DNA of 64,000 bases from a virus. The stretch is taken from positions 56,725 to 120,724 of the IMG/VR virus record IMGVR_UViG_3300035695_000002. One strand, given 5' to 3'. Positions 17,001 to 63,999 of this stretch are shown piece by piece. The stretch's first letter is position 1. Every line of letters begins with the position of its first letter. A program made the translations under genes and the position numbers. The notes beneath the pieces are model-generated. The model had not been told where the DNA came from. It saw only the letters and a list, made by a program, of their open reading frames with translations, and did not search any database.

Positions 17001-20000
17001 ATAAGCAGGGGTAGCTTCTAATACAACATCACCGTTCTTAAATCCTTCAAAAGCATCTACGATATTGTCATTCACCTCTCTTTTCAACACCTCATCCCTA
17101 AGAGTATCACTCACTTTATCAAAATCCTTAATAATGAAATCACCATCTTTGGTTTGTTCAATACCCATCTTTGTTAATAGGGAATTATATCCATTATCAA
17201 TAATGGCTTCCAATAAATGCTGATTGTTCTTTATTTCCTTATATAGCTCAGATTTGGCTAATTTCTGGGTTTCTGAAAGTTTATTCCATTCATTGAGCCT
17301 TTGTGTGAAATTAGCTCCTTTACTGAAGTCTACAGGAACTCCAGCCTCCATATAGTCCATTGTAACTAATTTGGTGATTTGAGATCCTCTAGTAACCAAA
17401 GGTTCATCCTTGGAAGGAACCTCTGATTGTATGGAAATAATACCATGAGAGACGTTTACAAGAGCCTCATAAGGAGATTCATTGAATGTTCCATCTTCAT
17501 TATAAATAGGATTAAGTCCTTCAGAACCCACTTTTCTACCGGAAGCAAATACTGTATAATCAATGTTCTCTTTCTGCATTTTATTATAATGCTTAATAGC
17601 ATTACTCTCAGGATTGAGAGAATGAACTATTCTAAAGGAAAGAGGATAGAGAGCAAACTTATCTAATACAACATCATTATAAGGTTTCCCGTTGAGTTTA
17701 TTTCCAAACACAATAGGTTTAATAGGAGTGTATGCACTCTTTACTTCAGGATTGATTCCGTCTAAAAGTGTTCTTTCTTCTTTAGATAGATCAATTCCTT
17801 TAATATCTTTCTCATAAGCAATGTCATATCTGTATTGCTTTTCTTCATCATCATTCCATTCTCCAGCTTTGATTCTAAACCACCTGTAGGCTTTATGTGA
17901 GATTATACCTCCACCGTCAGTTTCTTCAAAGTTCCCATAATCCTTTAAATCGGAGGTAGAAACAACATCTTCAGATGTAACTGTTCTGAAATAATCCCTA
18001 GTCATATCTGTATATCCCACATCCCCTTTATCATACCCCTTATTCCATATCTTATTAAGAGCTTTGTTGAAATTAGGAGAATTGTTAATTATAGCCTGTC
18101 TAGGAGAAAGAGCATTCTTAATACGCTTTAATTCATCAGAATATTGATAGGGGTCAGAATATAAGAGCTTATGAAACTCTATGTTATTGACAATATAATT
18201 GATTGTAATAGCACTTAATTGTCTATTTAATACAGGTTCTGTAATAACTTCTCCATCAGAGAAAGACAGATTTTGCACTTTGATTCCCTCACTATCCTTT
18301 TTAATAATGTCATATTTGGAGAGAAGTTCTCTTAAATTAACAGTTTCCTGCTTAATAAAAGCGTCAACTGCCTTATTTATCTGGGACTGATATTTTGCAT
18401 ACACTTCCTCAGTAGACAATTTTTCCTTTAATATAGACTTCTGTAACTCTTCTCCAAGTATGGACTTTAAGAACCTTAGATCTTCACTATCCCTCTTTTT
18501 AGCTACAGGTCTATCCTCCCTAGAAAGCTCTAATTCTGACAGAAAATACCCTTTGAATATATCATGTACTTTAGACATTCCTGATAATAGACTATCTGAA
18601 GATATATGATTTCCCATATAGGTCATCCATTCCATAGAAGCATCTCCAGGTACAAGATTGTAATAATATCCTTTAGAATTAAGATTGATTTCCTGTACAA
18701 GTCTTTCTTTGTATGTCAATTTGGCAGATTGTTTCTTCTTACCATTAGACGTATTGACAGTACCATCAGCATACCCAGGATGCATTAATTGCTCTCCTCC
18801 TTTGATTCTGTTTCCTGTAACAGGATTAAATATCTTATCCAAAATCACACTTCCTTGTGCAAAACTATCCGTAAGAAGATATTCGTAAGGAGTGTTGACT
18901 AGTTCGTTTTTATTGTTTATCTGGGAAAGAACATCAAATAAATCACTTGTAGGATTGGTTCCTATGAAAGTTTGTGTACGTTCTCCTTTTACATTAAAGA
19001 ATGTACTATCGAACTCTGGATTGTCAATAGAAGCCCTAATCAATGAAAGCTGCATAAGCCTTCCTTTGATGTTAAGCACTTTTCTACTCACTGTGGCTAT
19101 TTTCTCAGCTTCTTGAATACTCTTCTTTATACCAGCAACTGCTTCTATAAAGGATTGTTTTTTATCAGCAGAAAGTTTAGAAAGCTCTGAAGTCTTAAAC
19201 TCTATACCTAGGGATTTAAGGAAATTTATCCTATTTTGATCAGTAGATAGGGACACAGATTTTACACCAGAAGGTTTCCCTATATAAGCTTTCTCCTTGT
19301 TAGAATACTCAAAATAAGGATTTTTACTCTTTACTGTCTTTATAATAGAATTACCATAATCTGCACTCACTTGTCTAGCAGCACTAGATAGATTGCTATC
19401 TCCTACTTCTACATCTCCATTATCAAATATGTAAACATTCTTTACATCAGGAGACTGTTTTTTGAATGTTCTCCAGAAAGCAGCTAGAAGCTGTCCATCA
19501 TGTACTTCTGATATTTCCGATAGGTCAGAGGTGTTTTTTGTAAGTCTATTATATAGAGTTTTATAGTTATTATCATCCTCTGACATTTCCTTAATTCTAT
19601 CCATCATCTCATCGATGCTTCTGGAAGTATGGACATTATTCATAATAGCCATAAACACTTGACTAGAAGGAAGGAGTCTCACTCCTCCTATAGAAGACCT
19701 AACTAAATGATTTTTACTATCAACTATCGGAATAGTGGAAAGAAGAAGTTTTACAGCACTATTGGCTTTCTTGAATACATCTATTTTAGTAGCCTCCTGA
19801 TAATCCCCTTTCTTGGAAGCATCTTCGTCCTTAAGTACTAAATCATCATTTTCATCAAATTCAATAGAATAGGTTTTAAGGTATTCTTGGTGTTTTTTCA
19901 CCAATTCATCCCATTCACCAGATTGTTCAGCTATCTTTGTAAACCTAGTTTTAAGTCTATCGTACAGTTCTTTCTTATGTATATCAGGAATAGAGAATAA

Positions 20001-23000
20001 GCTCTTATTATCCTTAATAAGATCTGTAAGTGTTAAATAGGTCATATGCTGCATAATGTCATTCACCTTATCAGCAGGAATGTTTTTTATGCGAAATTCA
20101 CTGAAATTATCAGTGTATGCTTGTTCTACATCAATAAACCCTTCTTTAGCAAAGGAGAGCTGTTGTTCATGAGGAATGAATTGTTTATAGTATCCTCTAC
20201 CTATTTTATCAAATAACTTGTCTGTATTAGAAACAGCAGTATTTCCAGTGAAAAATGACTTTATAAAGTCTACTAAGTCACGGAATAGTTTTATAATAAA
20301 ATGTGTATTTTTAGCTTTTGGAGGAGATTTCTTATTAAGAACATAGTCTCTAAATTCTTCAGCCAATTGTTCTTTTATTTGAAAATCTGTAGCTTCAGAA
20401 TAATTAACAGTTTTGCCTGTAGGTCTGTCTACAAAACTACCTTCCCTGTCTTTGAATTCTTTTATTACATTAGCTTGTTCCTGAGGATCGGAGAACATTT
20501 TCCACACAGCTTCAAATACTTCATGGTAGATGGTTCCTAATTCTGCATCCTTAGATATGTAAATAGCTCCATTTTTTAACATACCCCAAGCTTGCTGGCC
20601 ATTAGTAGCCTGAATTACATTCTTCACTCTATATACAGGAAGGTTAGGGAAGTTAGCTTTTAACCACTTCTGCATCTCTTCCCAATTCTCAGGTTCAAAA
20701 TACTTAAGAGGTTCTTCAAGTTTAACTCTTAAGGCTACTTCCTCCCCATCTAAATCATCTATAGACCATTCCATTTTCTCCTCTATAGGAGATGTTGTTA
20801 TAATGGCTGGTTTCCTTTCAGGAGAAGGTGTTTCTGTTGATTTGTTAAATATAGACTTCTTAGGAGCCTTTTCCTCTGTTATTTGTGGAGCTATTGCTTG
20901 TTTAATTTTGCCTTCTATAGATGCTTTAGCTACATCTTTGTCATATTTCTCTGTAAGAGATTTGCGTATTTCTTCTACATCCCCTCCTGTTAATATGGTG
21001 ATTTTACCTTCAGAGGTGGCTTTGAAGTTTATATTTTTCCCTTCTGGGGAGGTATAAGTGTTAACTGTTTTACCATCCAGAATATAACCTTTCTGAGAAA
21101 CCTCCTTTTTAGCACTAGGAGCAACAACAGCTTTCTTGGGAGCATTTTCATAATTATCAGCACTATCTGTTAATGTGAAATATATACCATGTCTATTAAC
21201 GGCTCCTTCACCCACAGGTTTCATATTGGTGGAAAGAGGGAGTTCTGAAGATTTTCTTCCTTCCTTGGACAATAGATAGGTTTGATAATTAGGCCATGAT
21301 TTAGCCTCTATAACTCCTTCTCTGGAAATAGAGGTTATTTCCTCATAAGGAGTATTCCATAACTCAGGCTTATCAGTAAGCCCTGAATTAATATTATTAT
21401 ACATCCCTTCTAATAAGGAGATGATTTCCTCTTTACTCCCTTCTATAGAAGAAGGTGTGAAAGGATAAGTTTTATCTTTTCCTGATATAGATAGAGAGAA
21501 TTCCCCATTAATAGTACTAAACCATACACTGTTAAATCCTGCTGCATTCTTAGGAGATCCCCAATAAATGATGGATTTAAGCCAATTCATCAATCTTTTA
21601 GATTGTTCTGATTGAGCATCTTGGTTATTAAATATATCAATAGCTAATTGATGAATAGCTTCATATATTGTATTTACTTCATTCTTAGTAAGTTTTCTAT
21701 TGTCAAGCTTTACATATCCATTAGGAAGATTAAGGAAAGGACGTCCTAGAGGACTAGTGAAAGATACACTTCCTTTCTCTACAGTGGTGTCTGTGGTAGG
21801 AATGAATATTACAGGTTTTTCAGATAGGTCAGAAGACTTTATTAGTCCAGCTTCCTCTACACTAGTTTTAGCTGTATAGTCTCTTTTATTATTCCCTTTC
21901 TCATCTAAATTGGTAACATATTCAGGTATGCCGAAAGAAGCAGAAACAGGATGTTCATTTAAAGAAGGTTTCTCTAAAGCATTCTTTACCCATTCTGCGT
22001 AACGCATTTTGTAGTATTCTATCTGTTCAGGAGTAGTGTCCTTTCTAAACATAGTACCACCACCAAATTCCTTACTCCATTCTAATTTAGGATCAGGCAT
22101 CACTTGAACAATAATATTATCGAATGATGGGAATTCTAACTTTTTACCATCTTCTCCTACAGGAACACCATTCTCCACCATTACCAAAGCAATGATTTTA
22201 GAAGCATCTGCATCAGAATCTCCTTTTAAGAAATTAGTGAGTCCTTTAAGTCCTAATTCCTCTTCATTTTTAGATGTCAATAAAACACCTTTGATTTTCT
22301 GTCTATTAGGAAAACTATCTAAATTAGCTCCAAACTTATTACTTCTTATATGATGAGGAAGTGTAGAACTACCAGCAGGTTTTGTAGAAGTTACTACAGC
22401 CACATCAGTTTTCTTTGGTTTTGGTTCATAGGAAGATTCAGAATTCACTGTCTGAACTCCAGGATCTGCACTTCCTAATATCTCTTTTTGAAGCTTTTTA
22501 CTATTCTTTATTTTCTCTTCTTCTTCCTTTTGTCTAATAAATTTATCTGCTACTTCTTGAAATTTAGCAAGAATTAAATCTTTTGCTTTCAGTTCTTTTT
22601 CAGCATCACTTAGTTTAGTTTGAAGTCCTTTTAATTCTGTAACAAGTTCGTTTAATGTACGCTCATTAGGAGTAATGTCCAAGTCCTCTACTTGAGATAC
22701 AAGTTCTTCCACCTTAGAAAGCATATCCTTATAATCAGGATTTTTCTTAAGGAAGTTAGGATTTGACTTTAAAAAGTCCACCCACTCTTGTCCAATAGCT
22801 AAAGGAGCTTTAGGATAGAGAGTTTTGAAATCACTAATTATATCTCTTAAATATGCTACAGCAGAATCTAATGCTCCTTTTACCCCATCTACAAGTTTGG
22901 AAAGAGTATTTATTTCCTTACCTGTTTCCAAAATAAGAGATTCTAAGTTGTTTCTCTGTTCCTTTAATTCTTCTAAAAAGTCTTTAGTGTTAGTAGGAAG

Positions 23001-26000
23001 TTCATCTATATTCTGAGCCAAATCTGCTATATAGGCAGAGTTTAATTCAGTCTCATCTCTCTCTGCTTCTAATGCTGATATTTCTTCTTTTATTTGATCT
23101 TGAAGTCTAGAAAGCTTCATAGCAGCTTCTAAAGCTCTTCTACTAGAAGCTTTAAATCTGTTCTTTTTAGTAAATTGACTATCTTTTATTTTATCTTGTA
23201 AAGCAGATAAATCTTTTGTAATATTCTCTAATTGAGCCTGTTTCTCAGAAATAAGCTCTTTTGTTTTTTCATGTCTCTTGCTTACTTCATCAAATAGTTC
23301 TGTAAGAATCTTAAGTCTGCCTGTTCTTTTTTCAGTAATTCTATTATCTTGTTCTGTAGAAAATTCATCTAAAGATTTTTGTTGAGCAGGAGAAAGCTCC
23401 CCCACCTTACTTATCATAGGAAGAGAATATCCTTTTTTAGGGACAAATTGATCACCTGTTACTTCAATGGACTTTATTCTACCTTTAGCATCTTTATATA
23501 CAAAATTAAGGGTTTTATCTTTAGAGGAGTATTCCAGTCTACCCTTCTGTTTCTTCCCCTTACCAAAGTTGAATTCAAATATGGAGTTTATATTATCCAT
23601 ATAGAACTTAGCCTTCTTGTTATTTACAGTATCACTTACCTTACCAAGTTTATAGTCTTCTAATACAGCCTTGGATACATTTTTAACATTACCTTTCCCA
23701 TCACTAACTTTTATAGTACCGTCTTCATTTTCTCCAAGTATAGTAATACGAGGGAACCTATATACCTCTTTCCCAGATTTATCATATTCTACAGTTTTAC
23801 CCAAGAAATATTCTTCTCCAACAATTACCTCTTCCTCACCATCTTTGGTTTTAACTAATATTTTCTCTGGTTCTACCCCTGGAGTTGCAGTAGGAATCTG
23901 AACATCTTTATATGATTCTGGAGTTTTCTTAATATCATTATAGTCTTTAAGAAAAGACTGTCTCCTTAAAGCTAATTCTGATATATCATCTAAATCTCTT
24001 ACAAGTTCTTCTTTCTCATCATCGTTTATATCAAAAGATTCTATTTGAGAAAGGGCTTCATTGTATTTTTCAGACCTACCTTTTGCTACATCATTAATAA
24101 CATCAGAGGTTACAACACCTTTTAAAGCTAAAGAATTAGCTATTTGAGGAATACGCTTATCATAATCAGCCACTTTAGAGGCAGCATACACCATCTTATC
24201 TATCACCTCTGGAGAATAGACAGGTTTTCCATCCTTTACAAGATTACCATATCTTATTTGAAGAGATTCATAAAGCCCTTTTACATGTTTAGCTACTTCT
24301 TCTAAATTAGAAAGTCTTTGTAAATATGCCAATCTGGAGTCCCCCTGTAGCACTTTACCATCTGCTTGTAATTGAGAAAATCCTTCATTTGTAGAAGCTA
24401 GATGTTTATATTCATTTATATCACTTTGAACTAAATCAAATCTACCATACTTTATCCTAGGAGATAGATAGTTGATAATATAGTCTTGTTCCTTGTCTTT
24501 AGCTTCAAGAACATCACCTCTTCTTAAAGAAGCTTCTCTTTCTTCTTGAAGAACAGTACCTCTATTAACAGCATCTACTGTAGCTTTGGTAAAATCAGAA
24601 AGGTTATATCCATTGAATTTAGCAATAGCGTCTGCTGTATTTGCTTTTATTTGTCTATTCTCTTGGAACTTCCCTCTACCTAACATAAGAGCACCAGAGA
24701 GTCCTCCTATAAGAACATTCTCCATTCCCTCATTAGTACCAATAGTTTGTTTAGCTCCTTGAAATAAGGATTCTAACCAATCAGTGGACTTATTATCATA
24801 CTTCTTATTGTAATAATCGTTAGTTCCTTGGGAAATAGCATATTGAGCACCTTCTTCAAATCCTTCAGATGTGGAGAAAGTGTATGGTCTGATACCATTT
24901 ATAGAGGATAGTATTCTACCTGTTCTAGTGGAAGCTTCTTGTTTAATGAACTTACCTGTAGCATCTTTAGTAATATCTCCTATTTCCTTAGTGGTGGTGG
25001 AAGCAATTAAGCTTCTCTCTGCTTTATCAGAAGATCCTAGGATTTTAGGGAATTGTATATAATTTGTAGCTGTTAAAAGAGCTGTGTTTAATAAAAAAGA
25101 ACTGTTTCCTACACCATCAGAAGCAGCGTTTATAGCATCTAAATCTGAACCTATAGGTCCCCATCCATCATGGGAGTCTTTATATTCTTGAATTTTTGTA
25201 TTCCTGAAATCATTAAGATTGTAATAGGCTTCAAATCCGGCTTCCCCTGTTGTAGCCAATCCAGCTACTAATACTCTTTGTCCTTTGTTAAGAGTATTAT
25301 ATGTACCAAGGAACTTGTTGGACAAACTCTCTACTTTTCCATAAGTTTCAGCGGCCTTATCAGCAGCCATTAAGGCTTCTTCTGTAGCAGCTAATGTTTC
25401 ACCAGCCTTTCCTACAGAGAACAATTTAGCCATTCCTGGGAGAGCTGATAGAGATTTTAATCCAGAAGCATATACACCTCCTGAAAGGTAGGCTCCTGCT
25501 GCAAATCCCATATTCTTAATAATACCATCCCATAAGAAATTAGCTGTTAAAAGCTTTTTAGGAGAATACCAATTAGCATTCTTTTCTCCGTCTGTATAGT
25601 AATTAGGAAGAGTGTTTTCTAAGTTTTTATTGAATTCGTCTAAGGCTCTATTGAACTCATTATCATAAAATGAGGCTGCTCTACCATCCGTTAGAGCTTT
25701 TCCTAGCCCTATAACAGTACCTGCTGTAGATTGAAGGAATGTAGTTCCTGTTAAAGAAAGACCTTTCCCTACAGCATTTACCATTTTAGAAGGCCATCCC
25801 TGACCTAAAGCATAAGCATCTTCATTATTATAGTCTCCAGGTACATATTGATCGAATCTATTAGAGGATACTTCTTTAAGACTTCTAGGAATAGAACCAC
25901 CTGTAATCTTTCCATCTCCACCACTAGAAATAGAAAATAACTTATTCTCCAATGCACTTAGTGCAGAGGGTGTAGGATTTCCTCCTTCACTTGGAAGCAA

Positions 26001-26114
26001 AGAAGTATCAAATCCTTTATAAGGAAGATTTGGGAGATTTACGTCTGTAGGAGGAGAATATGTCTGAGAAGCATCTTGTAATGCTTGTTCATTCAATAAT
26101 GGTGTATCAGTCAT
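14022..26114 (-). CDS. Virion-packaged DNA-dependent RNA polymerase polyprotein (4030 aa), crAss/phi14:2 type
   Basis: RIPTQKQNSI...GSDFDIDKLF catalytic loop at about 16571-16595. Zincin-like YHEVFE at about 20515. Size and position fit the family. Confidence 0.88.
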   Translation of the reverse strand: MTDTPLLNEQALQDASQTYSPPTDVNLPNLPYKGFDTSLLPSEGGNPTPSALSALENKLFSISSGGDGKITGGSIPRSLKEVSSNRFDQYVPGDYNNEDAYALGQGWPSKMVNAVGKGLSLTGTTFLQSTAGTVIGLGKALTDGRAASFYDNEFNRALDEFNKNLENTLPNYYTDGEKNANWYSPKKLLTANFLWDGIIKNMGFAAGAYLSGGVYASGLKSLSALPGMAKLFSVGKAGETLAATEEALMAADKAAETYGKVESLSNKFLGTYNTLNKGQRVLVAGLATTGEAGFEAYYNLNDFRNTKIQEYKDSHDGWGPIGSDLDAINAASDGVGNSSFLLNTALLTATNYIQFPKILGSSDKAERSLIASTTTKEIGDITKDATGKFIKQEASTRTGRILSSINGIRPYTFSTSEGFEEGAQYAISQGTNDYYNKKYDNKSTDWLESLFQGAKQTIGTNEGMENVLIGGLSGALMLGRGKFQENRQIKANTADAIAKFNGYNLSDFTKATVDAVNRGTVLQEEREASLRRGDVLEAKDKEQDYIINYLSPRIKYGRFDLVQSDINEYKHLASTNEGFSQLQADGKVLQGDSRLAYLQRLSNLEEVAKHVKGLYESLQIRYGNLVKDGKPVYSPEVIDKMVYAASKVADYDKRIPQIANSLALKGVVTSDVINDVAKGRSEKYNEALSQIESFDINDDEKEELVRDLDDISELALRRQSFLKDYNDIKKTPESYKDVQIPTATPGVEPEKILVKTKDGEEEVIVGEEYFLGKTVEYDKSGKEVYRFPRITILGENEDGTIKVSDGKGNVKNVSKAVLEDYKLGKVSDTVNNKKAKFYMDNINSIFEFNFGKGKKQKGRLEYSSKDKTLNFVYKDAKGRIKSIEVTGDQFVPKKGYSLPMISKVGELSPAQQKSLDEFSTEQDNRITEKRTGRLKILTELFDEVSKRHEKTKELISEKQAQLENITKDLSALQDKIKDSQFTKKNRFKASSRRALEAAMKLSRLQDQIKEEISALEAERDETELNSAYIADLAQNIDELPTNTKDFLEELKEQRNNLESLILETGKEINTLSKLVDGVKGALDSAVAYLRDIISDFKTLYPKAPLAIGQEWVDFLKSNPNFLKKNPDYKDMLSKVEELVSQVEDLDITPNERTLNELVTELKGLQTKLSDAEKELKAKDLILAKFQEVADKFIRQKEEEEKIKNSKKLQKEILGSADPGVQTVNSESSYEPKPKKTDVAVVTSTKPAGSSTLPHHIRSNKFGANLDSFPNRQKIKGVLLTSKNEEELGLKGLTNFLKGDSDADASKIIALVMVENGVPVGEDGKKLEFPSFDNIIVQVMPDPKLEWSKEFGGGTMFRKDTTPEQIEYYKMRYAEWVKNALEKPSLNEHPVSASFGIPEYVTNLDEKGNNKRDYTAKTSVEEAGLIKSSDLSEKPVIFIPTTDTTVEKGSVSFTSPLGRPFLNLPNGYVKLDNRKLTKNEVNTIYEAIHQLAIDIFNNQDAQSEQSKRLMNWLKSIIYWGSPKNAAGFNSVWFSTINGEFSLSISGKDKTYPFTPSSIEGSKEEIISLLEGMYNNINSGLTDKPELWNTPYEEITSISREGVIEAKSWPNYQTYLLSKEGRKSSELPLSTNMKPVGEGAVNRHGIYFTLTDSADNYENAPKKAVVAPSAKKEVSQKGYILDGKTVNTYTSPEGKNINFKATSEGKITILTGGDVEEIRKSLTEKYDKDVAKASIEGKIKQAIAPQITEEKAPKKSIFNKSTETPSPERKPAIITTSPIEEKMEWSIDDLDGEEVALRVKLEEPLKYFEPENWEEMQKWLKANFPNLPVYRVKNVIQATNGQQAWGMLKNGAIYISKDAELGTIYHEVFEAVWKMFSDPQEQANVIKEFKDREGSFVDRPTGKTVNYSEATDFQIKEQLAEEFRDYVLNKKSPPKAKNTHFIIKLFRDLVDFIKSFFTGNTAVSNTDKLFDKIGRGYYKQFIPHEQQLSFAKEGFIDVEQAYTDNFSEFRIKNIPADKVNDIMQHMTYLTLTDLIKDNKSLFSIPDIHKKELYDRLKTRFTKIAEQSGEWDELVKKHQEYLKTYSIEFDENDDLVLKDEDASKKGDYQEATKIDVFKKANSAVKLLLSTIPIVDSKNHLVRSSIGGVRLLPSSQVFMAIMNNVHTSRSIDEMMDRIKEMSEDDNNYKTLYNRLTKNTSDLSEISEVHDGQLLAAFWRTFKKQSPDVKNVYIFDNGDVEVGDSNLSSAARQVSADYGNSIIKTVKSKNPYFEYSNKEKAYIGKPSGVKSVSLSTDQNRINFLKSLGIEFKTSELSKLSADKKQSFIEAVAGIKKSIQEAEKIATVSRKVLNIKGRLMQLSLIRASIDNPEFDSTFFNVKGERTQTFIGTNPTSDLFDVLSQINNKNELVNTPYEYLLTDSFAQGSVILDKIFNPVTGNRIKGGEQLMHPGYADGTVNTSNGKKKQSAKLTYKERLVQEINLNSKGYYYNLVPGDASMEWMTYMGNHISSDSLLSGMSKVHDIFKGYFLSELELSREDRPVAKKRDSEDLRFLKSILGEELQKSILKEKLSTEEVYAKYQSQINKAVDAFIKQETVNLRELLSKYDIIKKDSEGIKVQNLSFSDGEVITEPVLNRQLSAITINYIVNNIEFHKLLYSDPYQYSDELKRIKNALSPRQAIINNSPNFNKALNKIWNKGYDKGDVGYTDMTRDYFRTVTSEDVVSTSDLKDYGNFEETDGGGIISHKAYRWFRIKAGEWNDDEEKQYRYDIAYEKDIKGIDLSKEERTLLDGINPEVKSAYTPIKPIVFGNKLNGKPYNDVVLDKFALYPLSFRIVHSLNPESNAIKHYNKMQKENIDYTVFASGRKVGSEGLNPIYNEDGTFNESPYEALVNVSHGIISIQSEVPSKDEPLVTRGSQITKLVTMDYMEAGVPVDFSKGANFTQRLNEWNKLSETQKLAKSELYKEIKNNQHLLEAIIDNGYNSLLTKMGIEQTKDGDFIIKDFDKVSDTLRDEVLKREVNDNIVDAFEGFKNGDVVLEATPAYQQIRNILYSIADRNVISPKISGGQKVQIPSTLLESVKAKKEKGAYTSDFLRFYKDEDGKRTCEIMVGRWFNSPLSDSELLNYLNKTKEGQSLLSGVAYRIPTQKQNSIDSFVIKQFLPKEFGDSVVIPSELVRKVGSDFDIDKLFIYFKNTYTSLKGNIKQIPFYGYGEAAKAKLGELYDQGEFLKKEDRNRVNNWIKTRALDERQDVVNKLATAIFGQGAFDQEVIDDFLEANSDENLKERIVNQIYKKSLENEYIQSLQNLISHPDNFENLVKPNSADQLKALAKDITKKLGFAEFTYDDPKNMLNRHFMSRLRQAFVSGKYAIGIAAVNQTNHSLNQRQPIYIDQERWGLVSEEDKFWLSGGTFKKEDVAIKFKNYNKIDVNDKSVPTLSMIKNAKGENISDIIGQFIDGYVDISKGPWIMELGASPNVASTWLFLVKLGVPIKDVAYFMNQPIIRDYLDSIENAGYVWLFIEDFVEDIKDSPKYKVAPSEFNKIKEIPSNLGETVGKEKLSPQEKAQQQFILNEFLKYAKMANHQFLVTQGANWDTANFNDPYLVFKKNEQFKKAQSTIISSVNDLVKGSFIGKLSEKIYDVRDAFSTILTSDKPNVREVIEDVLRPYVDMNDRDFVKLAQKAVNDLFDWAVQNDRKLNNQIQKILLSDDNTAKEVSDFVTKVRKDENHPLYNNQIVKLVTPHFSEKNEGVNNLKIKNKDNKVYDQNQMIYAFSELRQYLKVQDSPLYGSLVRLAVLQSGLSNSPISFTSLLPYEDFKNIYNKTLSILEEYPNLADFKVLDVFQRNNWNNDDLVPQRKAKWKQNKNGEWKYNNNMKFIGYKRVSAAIAKKEIPQLVKINTKSREAENDVIVYTWETGTKAEKDKLKKQGDYSYIKRGLFKKVKQYGTPYTIDFSIGDTLISDYVYKAINAWGDSHSSDGVYFSANEFYNVAKPSIIDNGFIKVEKEASDESILSYFESPTKEVVEDEDDSNSNLPNCS

Positions 26115-50406: not shown

Positions 50407-50481
50407 TAGCGTTGTCTTGGATTCGAACCAAGGATTTCAAGCTTATGAGGCTTGCGAGATAGTCCACTTCTCTAACCCGCT
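50407..50481 (-). tRNA. tRNA-Met (CAT), isolated
   Basis: AGCGGGTTAGAGAAGTGG...CAAGC-CTCATAA-GCTTG...GGTTCGAATCC cloverleaf. Confidence 0.85.
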
Positions 50482-61227: not shown

Positions 61228-61332
61228 CTATTTGAATAACTCAGCTATTGTATTTATTACCACTGCTGCTATAAGGAATACTATCCTATACATGACCAAT
61301 CCTATCATTATTACTATAATTGCTCCTACCAT
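61228..61332 (-). CDS. 34-aa hydrophobic membrane peptide missed by the ORF track
   Basis: MVGAIIVIMIGLVMYRIVFLIAAVVINTIAELFK*, directly downstream of tRNA-Cys. Confidence 0.5.
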   Translation of the reverse strand: MVGAIIVIMIGLVMYRIVFLIAAVVINTIAELFK

Positions 61333-61347
61333 ATTGTTTAAATTTAG

Positions 61348-61418
61348 AATCAGGAGTGAGGTTCGAACTCACGTAATAGGTTTTGCAGACCTATGTTTAA
61401 CCACTCAACCATCCTGAT
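61348..61418 (-). tRNA. tRNA-Cys (GCA)
   Basis: Anticodon arm TAGGT-CTGCAAA-ACCTA; T-loop TTCGAAC. Confidence 0.9.
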
Positions 61419-61579
61419 ATTGCTTATCTGGAATTTCAAAGCCCTATATATTCCCAAGACCCTGCCACCCATCCCCAAAGTTACTGCCTTTTATGGGAGG
61501 ATTGCAAATAACATTCTAAGTTATTTTCTAACTATTTGATAATGAGGAGGAATAATTTCAAGTGAACACTTGACAAAAG

Positions 61580-61651
61580 TGCAGTAAGTGAGACTTGAAC
61601 TCACAGCCCTTGGTTTGGAAGACCAATGCTCTACCTTGGAGCTATTACTGC
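61580..61651 (-). tRNA. tRNA-Gly (TCC)
   Basis: TTGGT-CTTCCAA-ACCAA. Confidence 0.9.
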
Positions 61652-61656
61652 ATATG

Positions 61657-61727
61657 TACCCAATGATGGAATCAAACCACCGCTACATGGATGTAAACCA
61701 AGTGCGCTATCATTACGCCAATTGGGC
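61657..61727 (-). tRNA. tRNA-Val (TAC)
   Basis: CTTGG-TTTACAT-CCATG. Confidence 0.85.
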
Positions 61728-61731
61728 ATTG

Positions 61732-61804
61732 TGGAACCATCTAGTAACGATCTAGAATTTCTCCCTCTTCAGGGGAGCACATATACCATATATGTTATAG
61801 TTCC
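61732..61804 (-). tRNA. tRNA-Phe (GAA), atypical T-loop
   Basis: CTCCC-CTGAAGA-GGGAG; T-loop ATCGTTA. Confidence 0.85.
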
Positions 61805-61863
61805 TGATATGGAGCCAAGGGGCAGTGCTCCCACTGTAAGTTCCCTTTCAACTTGGCATTTAG

Positions 61864-61934
61864 ATGCGAAGAGGGGAGTCGAACCCCTACGGTGAGGATA
61901 TGAGCCTCATGATCTACCATTAATCTACCTCGCA
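61864..61934 (-). tRNA. tRNA-Met (CAT), initiator-like
   Basis: TGCGAGG acceptor stem; TGAGG-CTCATAT-CCTCA. Confidence 0.85.
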
Positions 61935-61940
61935 ATATTG

Positions 61941-62013
61941 TTGTGATATTAGGAATCGAACCTAAAACCTCCACCTTATCAGAGTGTTGCGCTGCCAGTT
62001 GCGCCATATCACA
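61941..62013 (-). tRNA. tRNA-Ile (GAT)
   Basis: CACT-CTGATAA-GGTG. Confidence 0.9.
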
Positions 62014-62018
62014 ATAAG

Positions 62019-62089
62019 TTCTGCCACAGGGAATCGAACCCTGGTCTGAAAGTTAAAAGCTTCCAGCTCTACCATTGAGCTATGACAGA
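62019..62089 (-). tRNA. tRNA-Lys (TTT)
   Basis: GGAAG-CTTTTAA-CTTTC. Confidence 0.9.
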
Positions 62090-62166
62090 ATAAATCTTGT
62101 CATAGTCTTTCTTATCTGTTTCCATAATATTTTAACTGAGTGACATCAATGTCCTTCAGTTGATAG

Positions 62167-62238
62167 TTGACCCTAGCAGTACCGATCTGCTGACCATCTC
62201 ATTATGAGTGAGGTGCTCCACCATTGAGCTAAGGGTCG
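62167..62238 (-). tRNA. tRNA with CAT anticodon, probably Ile2 (lysidine, reads ATA); Met not excluded
   Basis: GACCCTTAGCTCAATGG...CTCA-CTCATAA-TGAG resembles bacterial Ile2; T-loop ATCGGTA. Confidence 0.75.
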
Positions 62239-62241
62239 ATG

Positions 62242-62313
62242 TAGTCCTACTGAGATTCGAACTCAGACCAAAAGATTAGAAGTCTCTTATTCTTCCAATT
62301 AAACTATAGAACC
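62242..62313 (-). tRNA. tRNA-Arg (TCT)
   Basis: AGAGA-CTTCTAA-TCTTT. Confidence 0.9.
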
Positions 62314-62350
62314 TTGTTCTACAGTTGTCTCCTTATGTTTACTTTCATAG

Positions 62351-62424
62351 ATCCCTAGGTCAGAGTTGAACTGACAGCCTCCAGTTTACAAAACTATTGC
62401 TCCACCAATTGAGCTACGTAGGGA
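62351..62424 (-). tRNA. tRNA-Thr (TGT)
   Basis: TAGT-TTTGTAA-ACTG; irregular acceptor stem. Confidence 0.85.
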
Positions 62425-62430
62425 ATATTG

Positions 62431-62499
62431 CACGCCCCCATAGAATCGAACTATGTCCTACGGTTTTGGAGACCGTCTGGCTACCTTAGCCTGAAGCAT
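62431..62499 (-). tRNA. tRNA-Trp (CCA)
   Basis: ACGGT-CTCCAAA-ACCGT. Confidence 0.85.
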
Positions 62500-62506
62500 G
62501 TGTATG

Positions 62507-62577
62507 AGGGAAGTGATAGAATCGAACTACCATATAGTGATTAACAGTCACTTGTTCTGCCATTGAACTAACAACCC
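62507..62577 (-). tRNA. tRNA-Asn (GTT)
   Basis: AGTGA-CTGTTAA-TCACT. Confidence 0.9.
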
Positions 62578-62583
62578 TTTAAG

Positions 62584-62656
62584 CAGTCTTGAAGGGATTT
62601 GAACCCTCTCCGTACCCATAGACAGTGGGACATCTTAACCATTTGACCTCAAGACT
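62584..62656 (-). tRNA. tRNA-Asp (GTC)
   Basis: CCCA-CTGTCTA-TGGG. Confidence 0.88.
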
Positions 62657-62659
62657 ATG

Positions 62660-62733
62660 TGGAAAGGTTGGGGCTTCGAACCCCAGACTCCTGAATGCAA
62701 ATCAGGTGTGATAGCCAGCTTCACCAAACCCCC
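62660..62733 (-). tRNA. tRNA-Ala (TGC)
   Basis: CCTGA-TTTGCAT-TCAGG. Confidence 0.88.
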
Positions 62734-62735
62734 AT

Positions 62736-62767
62736 AAAACAAAAAAGACTCCTTTTTGGGGAGCCTT
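62736..62767 (-). terminator. Attenuator-type intrinsic terminator directly upstream of tRNA block B
   Basis: AAGGCTCC-CCAAAAA-GGAGTCTT-TTTTGTTTT, ending 2-3 nt before tRNA-Ala. Confidence 0.85.
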
Positions 62768-62790
62768 ATTAACCTATTAGGTTATATCTT

Positions 62791-62877
62791 TTATTGGCTC
62801 CAACAATACACTCCCACCTTACCACAATCTCTTGTCGCAAACATGGTGAATATAATATTAAACCAATTCCTTTTCAT
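62791..62877 (-). CDS. Leader peptide B (28 aa, MKRNWFNIIFTMFATRDCGKVGVYCWSQ)
   Basis: Translated by hand. Codons match the 14 downstream tRNAs. The 3' end carries GGAGCC, complementary to the terminator 5' arm GGCTCC. Confidence 0.85.
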   Translation of the reverse strand: MKRNWFNIIFTMFATRDCGKVGVYCWSQ

Positions 62878-62898
62878 ATTATTCTATTTAAACTTCTG

Positions 62899-62971
62899 TA
62901 CTCCCAAGGGGCTATGATCCCCTGTTTTAACATTGAAAGTGTTATGTCCTAGCCAATTAGACGATGGGAGC
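62899..62971 (-). tRNA. tRNA-Glu (TTC), atypical T-loop
   Basis: TAACA-CTTTCAA-TGTTA; T-loop ATCATAG. Confidence 0.85.
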
Positions 62972-63019
62972 ATATTGCTCCTCACTCTCTATTTCACTAT
63001 TTTGGACTATGTCTTTCAT
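62957..63019 (-). CDS. Leader peptide E (20 aa, MKDIVQNSEIESEEQYAPIV), reading into tRNA-Glu
   Basis: Translated by hand. Four Glu codons in a six-codon stretch; the stop codon lies inside the tRNA-Glu D arm. Confidence 0.65.
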   Translation of the reverse strand: MKDIVQNSEIESEEQYAPIV

Positions 63020-63026
63020 GGGAATA

Positions 63027-63058
63027 CAAACCTAGTAAATAAAATACATAATTCCTAA
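63027..63058 (-). promoter_or_regulatory. Internal Bacteroidota-type promoter for leader E, tRNA-Glu and leader B
   Basis: TAGGTTTG (-7 element) 7 nt upstream of the ATG at 63019; TTAG at the -33 spacing. Confidence 0.6.
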
Positions 63059-63079
63059 TATTTATCAAGTTATTTTTAG

Positions 63080-63160
63080 TTGTATAGGCAGGAATCGAAC
63101 CTACATAGCCTAAGCGGTGGTTTTACAGACCCTTGATTTAGCCAATTTACCATCTATACA
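63080..63160 (-). tRNA. tRNA-Tyr (GTA)
   Basis: GGT-CTGTAAA-ACC; long variable arm. Confidence 0.88.
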
Positions 63161-63166
63161 ATATAG

Positions 63167-63251
63167 AAGAGAGTAGGAGATTTGAACTTCTGGAGCTGTT
63201 ACACCCTTTTGTTTAGCAAACAAACACAATAAGCCACTCTGTCAACTCTCT
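63167..63251 (-). tRNA. tRNA-Ser (GCT)
   Basis: TTTGT-TTGCTAA-ACAAA; long variable arm. Confidence 0.88.
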
Positions 63252-63255
63252 GTAG

Positions 63256-63342
63256 AAGAGGGTGTGGGATTCAAACCCACGGAACTTTTACATCCTCTGG
63301 TTTTCAAGACCAGTGCAATAAATCAGACTCTACCAACCCTCT
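63256..63342 (-). tRNA. tRNA-Ser (TGA)
   Basis: CTGGT-CTTGAAA-ACCAG; long variable arm. Confidence 0.9.
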
Positions 63343-63347
63343 TTATG

Positions 63348-63435
63348 TATCCCTAGAAGGCATCGAACCTTCACACTACTATTATTTCGCTTTAGATTTT
63401 AAGTCTAACGTGTCTGCCAATTTCACCATAGGGAC
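63348..63435 (-). tRNA. tRNA-Leu (TAA)
   Basis: TTAGA-CTTAAAA-TCTAA; long variable arm. Confidence 0.9.
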
Positions 63436-63438
63436 ATG

Positions 63439-63513
63439 TACTTCAGGTGGAATTCGAATCCACAAGCCCCTGATTCTAAATCAGAGAGGTTTACCATTTT
63501 CCTTCACTGAAGC
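63439..63513 (-). tRNA. tRNA-Leu (TAG), short variable loop
   Basis: TCTGA-TTTAGAA-TCAGG. Confidence 0.85.
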
Positions 63514-63519
63514 ATATAG

Positions 63520-63591
63520 TCTTTTCTTAAGGATTTGAACCTTAATTGCAGAGTTCGTAGCCCTGAGTCCTTCCATTTAAACGAAGAAAAG
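63520..63591 (-). tRNA. tRNA-Arg (ACG)
   Basis: CAGGG-CTACGAA-CTCTG. Confidence 0.9.
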
Positions 63592-63596
63592 AAATA

Positions 63597-63667
63597 GGTG
63601 TCTGATGGGAATTGACCCCACACATCTTTGATTCACAGTCAAAGGCTCTACATTAAGCTACAGACAC
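63597..63667 (-). tRNA. tRNA-His (GTG)
   Basis: TTTGA-CTGTGAA-TCAAA; C73 discriminator. Confidence 0.88.
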
Positions 63668-63669
63668 AG

Positions 63670-63741
63670 TTTTAATATTGGGATTCGAACCCAAACTACC
63701 AGATTCAAAATCCGAGGTGCTAACCGTTACACCATATTAAA
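63670..63741 (-). tRNA. tRNA-Gln (TTG)
   Basis: TCGGA-TTTTGAA-TCTGG. Confidence 0.9.
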
Positions 63742-63743
63742 AG

Positions 63744-63819
63744 TCTAGATGGCAGGATTTGAACCTGCGTAATCCTGCTTCCAAGGCAGGCTAGATAAAC
63801 CTAACTCCTATACATCTAG
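63744..63819 (-). tRNA. tRNA-Pro (TGG)
   Basis: CCTGC-CTTGGAA-GCAGG. Confidence 0.9.
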
Positions 63820-63852
63820 AAAATAAAAAACCCCTCTTTTTGGGAGGGGTCT
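63820..63852 (-). terminator. Attenuator-type intrinsic terminator directly upstream of tRNA block A
   Basis: GACCCCTC-CCAAAAA-GAGGGGTT-TTTTATTTT, abutting tRNA-Pro. Confidence 0.88.
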
Positions 63853-63875
63853 ATGCTTTAAAAAGTTGTTCTGAA

Positions 63876-63962
63876 TCAACTATAATCAAACACAAATATC
63901 CCCTCACCTCCTAGATAACTAGGGAGCGAATGCTGTTGTGAAGGGCGTAAGTATTGTTTCAT
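63876..63962 (-). CDS. Leader peptide A (28 aa, MKQYLRPSQQHSLPSYLGGEGIFVFDYS)
   Basis: Translated by hand. Codons 3-17 match the nine downstream tRNAs. Contains GAGGGG, complementary to the terminator arm CCCCTC. Confidence 0.85.
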   Translation of the reverse strand: MKQYLRPSQQHSLPSYLGGEGIFVFDYS

Positions 63963-63967
63963 AAAGG

Positions 63968-63999
63968 CAAATATATGTAAAAGGATTGACATTTCCAAA
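63968..63999 (-). promoter_or_regulatory. Bacteroidota-type promoter of the tRNA array (leaderless transcript predicted)
   Basis: TTTG-N20-TATATTTG, then CCTTT and the ATG of leader A. Confidence 0.8.

Follow-up and report, generated by a model that had tools for sequence, protein, structure and literature searches.

Bacterial and phage genes for transfer RNA (tRNA) are commonly regarded as constitutive or as controlled by growth rate. Among enterobacterial amino-acid operons, multivalent attenuators are familiar from ilvGMEDA (Ile, Leu and Val) and thr (Thr and Ile), in the company of trpL, hisL, leuL and pheL. In Escherichia coli, attenuation of pheST through the pheM leader controls phenylalanyl-tRNA synthetase. 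Here we describe a minus-strand tRNA array in which two blocks of genes, A and B, are each preceded by a short open reading frame (ORF), termed a leader, and a terminator-like hairpin; the leader is written largely in the codons that the tRNAs of its own block read. The array lies in the window, the whole stretch of DNA that was analysed, which makes up the last 64 kilobases (kb) of a complete virus record of 120,724 base pairs (bp), IMG/VR record IMGVR_UViG_3300035695_000002 (positions 56,725 to 120,724). We consider it likely that blocks A and B are under ribosome-mediated (leader-peptide) transcription attenuation of the trp/ilv type, applied to tRNA genes.

With the attenuators of amino-acid operons the locus shares a short ORF near the promoter with its regulatory codons, an intrinsic terminator ahead of the regulated genes, and an antiterminator that excludes the terminator and depends, in this case in silico, on the position of the ribosome. 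It differs in that the regulated genes are tRNAs, and in that the sensor is a panel of 9 or 14 tRNA species, each sampled one to three times, as opposed to one to three amino acids. The tRNA product is also proposed to act directly on the sensor, in a one-step loop, and the messenger RNA (mRNA) of the window is predicted to be nearly leaderless, without a Shine-Dalgarno sequence. At pheST a leader peptide likewise governs a component of the decoding apparatus, but it regulates a synthetase and senses one amino acid, whereas here the product is tRNA and the sensor reads many. T-boxes couple tRNA status to the choice between terminator and antiterminator upstream of translation-related genes; unlike the present leaders, they do so by direct binding of uncharged tRNA, without the help of a ribosome. 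In the window and six related loci, all 114 cmscan matches at gathering thresholds were to tRNA, with no T-box and no other Rfam family. The trn operon (L-array) of Anabaena sp. PCC 7120, silent until induced by translational stress according to the accessible part of PMC8421152, resembles the present array as an accessory tRNA set expressed on demand when translation is impaired. As presented there, control is exerted at the promoter, via direct repeats and the TrcR repressor, with neither a leader ORF nor a terminator among the features described, and the system is cellular, not viral. A term search of the accessible portion of a second trn paper (PMC10272220) did not find leader, attenuat, terminator or stall. 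Our full-text literature search, with subscription papers and supplements outside its scope, returned no attenuator or leader-peptide control of tRNA genes. Attenuation is a known kind of mechanism; its proposed use on tRNA genes and the panel logic of the sensor would be new.

The minus-strand array occupies about 2.5 kb (61347-63819) and is a dense, one-strand phage tRNA array. ARAGORN called 22 genes, of which 21 exceeded the cut-off of the Rfam tRNA model (29 bits), Phe being missed. Two further genes, Tyr-like and Trp-like, scored below that cut-off (Table 1) and are homologous to well-scoring Tyr and Trp genes at the same positions in relatives. An earlier note on this DNA had described 24 genes arranged as block A, tRNA-Glu and block B; the layout stands, and the count resolves into 22 ARAGORN genes and two sub-threshold ones. 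ARAGORN called Tyr-GTA in the related loci L003, L004, L086 and L095, while L091 has the uncalled form seen in the window. The Tyr-like and Trp-like tRNAs of the window look degenerate, and the odd Tyr form is common to L091. The CAT tRNA of block B is probably Ile2, because L003 and L095 carry, as judged by eye, a tRNA-like sequence with a TAT anticodon at that place.

Each leader follows the composition of its own block. The nine tRNAs of block A read 25 codons (set A) and the fourteen of block B read 33 (set B). Fifteen of fifteen consecutive codons in the sensor run of leader A belong to set A, and 23 of 23 in that of leader B belong to set B; between them the two runs sample 9/9 and 14/14 tRNAs. 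The match reaches isoacceptor level: CGC against AGG/AGA, TTA against CTN, TCN against AGY, ATT against ATA. Arginine is thus CGC in leader A and AGG or AGA in leader B. In leader B, Ile-GAT is represented by ATT and the CAT tRNA by ATA, and this leader has no L, P, H or E. The earlier note had read the use of own-block codons, the difference in Arg codons and the absence of L, P, H and E from leader B; these were borne out, as were the equal lengths of leaders A and B (28 amino acids) and the tiny ORF starting with ATG AAA before block A, tRNA-Glu and block B alike.

Chance probabilities (P) were derived from the trinucleotide frequencies of the genome itself. For leader A, P was about 5e-7 for 15 consecutive set-A codons and 0.027 for covering nine tRNAs given 15 codons; for leader B, the values were about 3.5e-6 for 23 consecutive set-B codons and 0.005 for covering 14 tRNAs given 22 codons. 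The chance probability is about 1e-8 per leader. In a six-frame scan of the genome, set-A runs of at least 15 codons occurred in 4 of 52,361 cases, two of the four being leader A, doubled by the end repeat of the record; set-B runs of at least 23 occurred in 2 of 58,478, one being leader B. The leader runs rank among the two or three longest in the 120.7-kb genome, and the codon match is confined to a single frame, that of the ATG.

The terminator-like hairpins A and B end 8-11 nucleotides (nt) before tRNA-Pro and tRNA-Ala, respectively. This gap is too small to hold a promoter, and the blocks therefore depend on read-through. The earlier note had put terminators with a common CCAAAAA loop right at the first tRNA; hairpins and loops are present, at the distance just given. 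In relatives the loop is not conserved, so that its sharing carries no weight, and hairpins equivalent to the terminators, differing in sequence, occur in all homologs. The two 6-nt complements noted earlier, GAGGGG/CCCCTC for leader A and GGAGCC/GGCTCC for leader B, were recovered. In every case the best partner of the terminator 5' arm within the ORF lies just 3' of the matched run (codons 19-22 in leader A of the window, 16-25 in its relatives and 25-28 in leader B), with duplex energies of -10.6 to -14.6 kcal/mol. The best duplex of the leader A segment of the window has -11.4 kcal/mol, equalled by a fraction of 0.032 of shuffles. For leader B the pairing extends to 7-8 bp in relatives (-11.9 to -14.6 kcal/mol), and the shuffle fractions were 0-0.008 in six of seven variants and 0.086 in L086.

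To represent a ribosome in the folding model, the RNA was kept unpaired over a footprint that began 15 nt 5' of the first A-site base and extended to 12 nt 3' of it. A cut transcript, ending just before the terminator 3' arm, replaced the equilibrium fold of the full-length RNA as the test of the switch. With the A site inside the matched run, the terminator 5' arm was paired with a probability of 0.8-1.0. The drop began at the last one or two matched codons and was complete one or two codons past the run. For leader A, the probability that the arm is paired fell below 0.1 from codon 18 in the window (run 3-17), codon 20 in L003 (run 6-19), codon 15 in L004 (run 3-13) and codon 19 in L086 (run 3-18), with values of 0.00-0.11 after the drop in each. 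For leader B (run 1-23) the drop came at codon 23/24 and left a probability of 0.3-0.6. When the full transcript was folded with a ribosome placed on the stop codon, the terminator formed with a probability of 0.92-0.97 for leader A and, for leader B, of 0.92-0.96 in six of seven variants and 0.57 in L086. The folding check suggested in the earlier note, with and without a ribosome footprint, thus came out in its favour: in silico, the terminator arm passes from antiterminator pairing to the free state where the matched run ends.

Relatives were sought in three places. Among GenBank phages there was no close relative; 115 records matched, through short tRNA-Ser matches only, and none had a query coverage of at least 80%. 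Among terminase relatives in IMG/VR, the array was present in two of the best 80 of 456, and a search of IMG/VR with a degenerate leader B pattern yielded only the same two contigs. Applied to metagenomes, the leader B pattern gave 13 loci, eight of them true and five (L088, L089, L092, L094, L096) chance matches without tRNAs. Seven distinct array variants were compared, with the leader A region covered in five.

Leader A is present in all five genomes that cover it (peptides MKQYLRPSQQHSLPSYL.., MKQYLRSYSLQHSLPSYL.., MLNNNLRPLQHSHSLPSYL.., MNILRPSQHLQSYLSLY.. and MNLRPLQHSYSLL..), with matched runs of 15, 16, 14, 14 and 11 codons that each sample 9/9 tRNAs; the probability of such coverage given the run length is 0.003-0.04. 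Indels in the core are all multiples of three. In L086 a 2-nt deletion in the tail causes a frameshift, an earlier end of the ORF and a shorter peptide, and the tail of leader A is therefore not conserved as a peptide. In L004 the leader A ATG overlaps (ATGA) the stop codon of a 65-amino-acid ORF that starts at the promoter, so that leader A would there be translated by coupling. This ORF (4812-5009 of L004), between promoter and leader A, has a CxxC...CxxC pattern and no Pfam match. In L091 a gene for an HNH_3/NUMOD4 endonuclease stands between terminator A and tRNA-Pro, with leader and terminator intact.

Leader B is present in 7/7 variants, and third codon positions account for 10 of its 15 variable sites. 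Identity between variants is 85-99% in the leader B ORF against 64-98% in the spacer 3' of it; the spacer was the less identical of the two in 21/21 pairs, at 64-80% in 18 of them. A change in block content can be followed in genome G002 (locus L004), the only one to differ in tRNA content, which has no tRNA-Val anywhere in its 123.9-kb record: its leader B contains no Val codon, compared with one or two in the other six, and covers 12/12 of its own block-B tRNAs. The Ile2-like tRNA of G002 sits elsewhere in the genome, outside block B. Taken together, the changes in this leader B comprise one that is supportive (Val), one that is neutral and one that is contrary.

The same rule was found in an unrelated lineage. 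Maribacter phage Panino (PP540027.1, 77 kb, with a cultured host, Maribacter halichondriae) is unrelated to the phage of the window and groups its tRNAs differently; it has three cassettes, in each of which a promoter and an ATG leader are followed by a terminator and a tRNA block. In the first, TATATTTG is followed after 4 nt by an ATGAAA leader containing QRLHQELEQP, then by the terminator and a block of Pro, Glu, Gln, His, Leu-TAG, Leu-TAA and Arg-ACG; ten consecutive codons cover 7/7 tRNAs of this block (f^run 3e-6). In the third, a leader with FSWFNYSN and a terminator precede Tyr, Ser, Ser, Asn, Trp and Phe, and eight consecutive codons cover 6/6 tRNAs (2e-5). The second cassette is not clean, with 16/24 codons on-set and a longest run of 4, counting only the tRNAs that could be named. 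Glu lies inside a block in Panino, and Glu codons stand in the leader; Tyr and Ser are grouped with Asn, Trp and Phe, and the leader mixes these. The Panino leaders are dissimilar in sequence and obey the same codon-to-block rule. Leader codon content thus tracks block content in relatives and beyond them, as the earlier note had anticipated: in leader A (9/9 in 5/5 genomes), in the loss of Val from G002, and in Panino. In the Panino record two short ORFs are annotated as hypothetical proteins, and the Tyr and Ser-TGA tRNAs are missing from the annotation.

Motifs that would allow transcription of the leaders are suitably placed and conserved in relatives. The Bacteroidota sigma-ABfr-type motif consists of TAnnTTTG at -7 and TTTG near -33, as given in the accessible part of PMC7366714. 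A candidate of this form precedes leader A in the window (Table 1), and the same box-to-ATG arrangement is found in L003, L086 and L091. The Glu ORF has a TAnnTTTG box 4-7 nt before its ATG in 7/7 variants. Leader B has no promoter of its own, its ATG lying 20 nt past tRNA-Glu. TAnnTTTG is not enriched across the window as a whole (97 occurrences against 81 +/- 8 expected). A Shine-Dalgarno-like core precedes only 2 of the 103 long ORFs, and the upstream regions are A-rich at -3 to -5 and -12 to -14, which agrees with the Bacteroidota style described in that part of PMC7366714. A sigma-70 promoter scan was of little use for a phage of Bacteroidota style.

The phage probably makes these tRNAs only when ribosomes decode the matching codons slowly; the translation of the leaders, the response to stalling and the feedback, like the consequence for RNase P considered below, are what we infer from the arrangement. 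The proposed sequence of events would run as follows: transcription would begin at the Bacteroidota-type promoter a few nucleotides before the ATG, the RNA of leader B coming from the Glu unit, and a ribosome would translate the leader while RNA polymerase proceeds to the terminator. Prompt decoding of all sensor codons would bring the ribosome to the tail of the ORF, where it would cover the G-rich segment or, in leader B, GGAGCC. With its 5' arm left free, the terminator hairpin would form, and transcription would end short of the tRNAs. A single slow sensor codon, its charged tRNA being scarce, would hold the ribosome upstream; the tail would then pair with the terminator 5' arm, and polymerase would enter the tRNA block. 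Finally, the new phage tRNAs would speed the same codons and the block would close again, a negative feedback with OR logic across 9 or 14 tRNAs. As the trigger, a host anticodon nuclease, a mismatch between codons and tRNA supply, or loss of host tRNAs during infection would fit equally well. That phage tRNAs offset host tRNA cleavage by PARIS AriB, as stated in the accessible part of PMC12409363, gives a motive for tRNAs on demand; that part describes no regulation of phage tRNA genes, and nothing in the window ties the array to a defence system.

Several observations weigh against attenuation as proposed here. All the homologs belong to one clade. The Tyr-like and Trp-like genes of the window are below cut-off, yet the leaders still carry their codons. 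Leader A homologs have off-set K, LNNN, NI or N after the ATG, inside the zone in which a stall would be permissive, and leader B of G002 keeps ATA though the Ile2-like tRNA is not in the block, and has an off-set Ser TCA. The shuffle fractions for leader A were only 0.016-0.054. In the full-length fold of the window, the C-rich sensor segment of leader A pairs with the terminator 3' arm, and there is no textbook 1:2 helix. At equilibrium, terminator B remains the preferred structure for most placements of the ribosome and, in L003, for every one of them, so that the argument for antitermination must be a kinetic, co-transcriptional one. In the trp attenuator the terminator is likewise the more stable helix. 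Nearly leaderless mRNAs are also rare in Bacteroides, where about 3.7% of 5' untranslated regions are shorter than 10 nt (accessible part of PMC7366714).

Three other explanations were weighed. The strongest of them, which we nevertheless regard as unlikely, is that the switch senses the general status of translation (ribosome availability, a global elongation block or host shut-off) and that the codon match is secondary. In its favour, leader A without any ribosome is predicted by the cut-transcript model to be antiterminated, so that loss of translation alone would open block A, a point that also counts against attenuation as proposed; and general translational stress is what induces the Anabaena trn array (PMC8421152, in the part accessible). 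A general sensor would have no need of an isoacceptor-level match, of 9/9 and 14/14 coverage or of covariation with block content, and in leader B of the window, L003 and L004 an internal hairpin tips the fold towards termination when no ribosome is present. Slightly less probable again is that constitutively leaky terminators, or hairpins serving stabilisation or processing, set the level of the tRNAs, with the ORFs uncoupled from termination. This would suit the dominance of terminator B at equilibrium in nearly all modelled states and the shortness of the antiterminator helices (6-8 bp), a further weakness of attenuation, but it leaves the exact use of block codons by the ORFs unexplained, and in 4/4 modelled leader A homologs and in leader B the end of the run coincides with the loss of antiterminator preference, the best partner of the arm always lying in the ORF tail. 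It is very improbable that the ORFs encode small functional peptides with terminators of their own, the codon match being a by-product of composition or history: such a function would also explain the almost invariant leader B peptide, with its mostly synonymous changes and hydrophobic core, an invariance that counts against attenuation, but leader A turns over (indels, reordering, a frameshifted tail) while set membership and full coverage persist, the tRNAs depend on read-through for want of a promoter before the first of them, the dissimilar Panino leaders follow the same rule, and the chance probabilities given above speak against coincidence.

Attenuation by a stalled ribosome does not extend to every unit of the array. 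The earlier note had proposed that a stall gives read-through over all 20 amino acids; for blocks A and B this is supported in silico, but the Glu unit, like the Lys unit, has no terminator and cannot operate by read-through. In both units the mini-ORF runs into the tRNA gene. Glu ORFs have four or five Glu codons each, and in six of seven variants four of these lie within six consecutive codons that stop two codons short of the tRNA (three in L091). The segment GGAGC of the Glu ORF (62981-62977), which belongs to its last Glu codons, pairs with the 5' strand of tRNA-Glu, GCTCC (62971-62967), and this hairpin is kept through two-sided changes (GGAGC/GCTCC, GGAAC/GTTCC, AGGAG/CTCCT). In the Lys unit, CTATGACA (62105-62098) pairs with the 5' strand of tRNA-Lys, TGTCATAG (62087-62080), as an 8-bp hairpin, with compensatory changes to CTATGAGA/TCTCATAG in L003 and AGAGGC/GCCTCT in L004. 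The scan that detected the terminator hairpins also reported the Lys hairpin, on the opposite strand. A Lys mini-ORF running into tRNA-Lys was seen in the window, L003, L004, L086, L091 and L095.

In the fold model, the acceptor stem formed with a probability of 0.00-0.01 in 10/10 Glu and Lys precursors, compared with 0.70-0.97 for the tRNA alone. With a ribosome masking the RNA, it rose to about 0.95 only when the A site was in a window of 3-6 codons that holds the cognate codons. The 3' part of the mini-ORF would accordingly pair with the 5' acceptor strand of the tRNA, and only a ribosome pausing among the cognate codons would let the cloverleaf fold and hence be processed. Some results count against this. 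In L003 the Glu acceptor stem reaches only 0.14. The enrichment in Lys codons (3/12 codons) is not significant by estimate, so that the Lys unit rests on its hairpin and compensatory changes. Among 15 control contexts in which one tRNA follows another, with the whole previous tRNA upstream, two gave 0.00 and one 0.18; control contexts can thus also lose the acceptor stem, and masking in silico is by itself not evidence. A shorter control, with the upstream context truncated to 48 nt, gave low values for 8/22 tRNAs and was flawed. We give the acceptor-masking design of the Glu and Lys units roughly an even chance of being real. In E. coli, designed riboswitches act via the pre-tRNA 5' leader to control cleavage by RNase P, according to the accessible part of PMC8925977. 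As in the design reported there, a 5' leader is proposed to decide 5' maturation in the Glu and Lys units; that device is synthetic and driven by a ligand, whereas the present element is natural and its proposed effector is a ribosome paused on an ORF that overlaps the tRNA.

A sensor specific for Cys was considered and rejected: the ORF that follows the TAACTTTG box lacks Cys codons and in L086 has CTG in place of its ATG, and the fold of the Cys precursor is normal in 4/5 variants. The Cys spacer (61419-61578, minus strand) has this TAACTTTG box (61483-61476) and then a conserved G-rich block with four G-runs, resembling a G-quadruplex. The block is kept in L003, L086 and L095 and has a variant form in L004; it is probably non-coding, since L086 has CTG at the site of the ATG within it.

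Both the reason that phages have tRNA genes and the way in which these are expressed are open questions. If the proposal for blocks A and B is correct, this would be the first attenuator to sense its own product, it would account for the splitting of arrays into blocks, and it would offer a read-out of the host tRNAs that a phage expects to be short, whether through codon-usage mismatch, decay of host tRNAs or anticodon nucleases. The rule is legible from sequence and so can be applied across metagenomic phages, and it is testable now, since Panino and its host are cultured and Panino has the same cassettes. The units in which an ORF runs into a tRNA may be a new kind of their own and would add a new coupling of translation to RNA maturation. 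More tentatively, and rather less likely than not, the two classes together (panel attenuators and ORF-into-tRNA masking, the latter so far undescribed) could form a ribosome-read tRNA homeostat for all 20 amino acids. As the attenuator design is seen again in unrelated Bacteroidota phages, a cultured one among them, it would then be a general strategy by which viruses sense and repair the decoding pool of the host.

Table 1. Elements of the tRNA array and its leaders. Positions are those of the window unless a locus is named.
Feature	Position	Strand	Remarks
TTTG, candidate -33 element of promoter A	63996-63999	-	20 nt upstream of the -7 box
TATATTTG, Bacteroidota-type -7 box	63968-63975	-	5 nt before leader A ATG; nearly leaderless mRNA predicted
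Leader A ORF	63876-63962	-	28 codons and stop; MKQYLRPSQQHSLPSYLGGEGIFVFDYS; starts ATG AAA
Leader A sensor run	63912-63956	-	codons 3-17, all block-A codons; 9/9 tRNAs sampled
GAGGGG, predicted leader A antiterminator segment	63900-63905	-	codons 20-21; complementary to terminator 5' arm CCCCTC
Terminator A	63828-63852	-	9-bp stem, loop CCAAAAA, U-tract to about 63820; local free energy (dG) -16.0
Block A	63166-63819	-	Pro-TGG, Gln-TTG, His-GTG, Arg-ACG, Leu-TAG, Leu-TAA, Ser-TGA, Ser-GCT; plus the Tyr-like gene
Tyr-GTA-like tRNA	63081-63159	-	24.4 bits, below cut-off; weak anticodon stem; ninth member of block A
TAGGTTTG, -7 box of Glu unit	63027-63034	-	7 nt before ATG
Glu mini-ORF	62957-63019	-	20 amino acids, starts ATG AAA; 4 Glu codons within codons 9-14; extends 15 nt into tRNA-Glu
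tRNA-Glu-TTC	62898-62971	-	ARAGORN and Rfam; between blocks A and B
Leader B ORF	62791-62877	-	28 codons and stop; MKRNWFNIIFTMFATRDCGKVGVYCWSQ; starts ATG AAA
Leader B sensor run	62809-62877	-	codons 1-23, all block-B codons; 14/14 tRNAs sampled
GGAGCC, predicted leader B antiterminator segment	62796-62801	-	codons 26-28; complementary to terminator 5' arm GGCTCC
Terminator B	62745-62767	-	8-bp stem, loop CCAAAAA, then U-tract
Block B	61579-62733	-	Ala, Asp, Asn, Trp-like, Thr, Arg-TCT, CAT tRNA, Lys, Ile-GAT, Met-CAT, Phe, Val, Gly
Trp-CCA-like tRNA	62431-62499	-	28.0 bits, below cut-off; bulged acceptor stem; block B
Lys mini-ORF	62069-62125	-	METDKKDYDKIY... (METDKK..); runs into tRNA-Lys; absent from the earlier note
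tRNA-Cys-GCA	61347-61418	-	separated from block B by a 160-nt spacer
Panino cassettes	L098 5640-6580, L101 440-1640		three, each promoter, ATG leader, terminator and tRNA block

The genes for terminase, portal and major head protein adjoin the array, just downstream. An overlap of 127 bp is the residue that some assemblers leave on circular genomes, and the record has an end repeat of this length. The repeat contains leader A and its promoter, which means that the DNA 5' of leader A resumes at the start of the record.

Homing-endonuclease insertions were observed at varied sites in the arrays of relatives: in L091 (254-655), L095 (10527-10961 and 8919-9224, minus strand of the locus) and L003 (6895-7281). 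Their Pfam matches were HNH_3/NUMOD4, LAGLIDADG_1 and HNH, and two of the three insertions with such matches lie in spacers; the 128-amino-acid ORF in the array gap of L003 (6895-7281) had no Pfam match. The HNH insertion of L095 is preceded by a fragment that, by eye, resembles the 5' part of tRNA-Cys. An extra ORF of 40 amino acids (L003 5791-5913), between tRNA-Glu and leader B, occurs in L003-type genomes only.

An isolated tRNA with a CAT anticodon was located in the window at 50408-50480 on the minus strand (Rfam 43.8 bits, without an ARAGORN call), and genomes G001 and G002 each have one isolated CAT tRNA outside the array. Directly after tRNA-Cys lies an ORF for a very hydrophobic peptide of 34 amino acids, MVGAIIVIMIGLVMYRIVFLIAAVVINTIAELFK (61228-61332, minus strand). 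It is followed by a perfect sigma-70-like TTGACA-16-TATAAT (61221-61194) and then by a TACATTTG box before the next gene. Elsewhere in the window, an ORF of 4030 amino acids (14022-26114, minus strand) is lined up with other very large ORFs of the same strand, of 1864, 1627 and 1364 amino acids.

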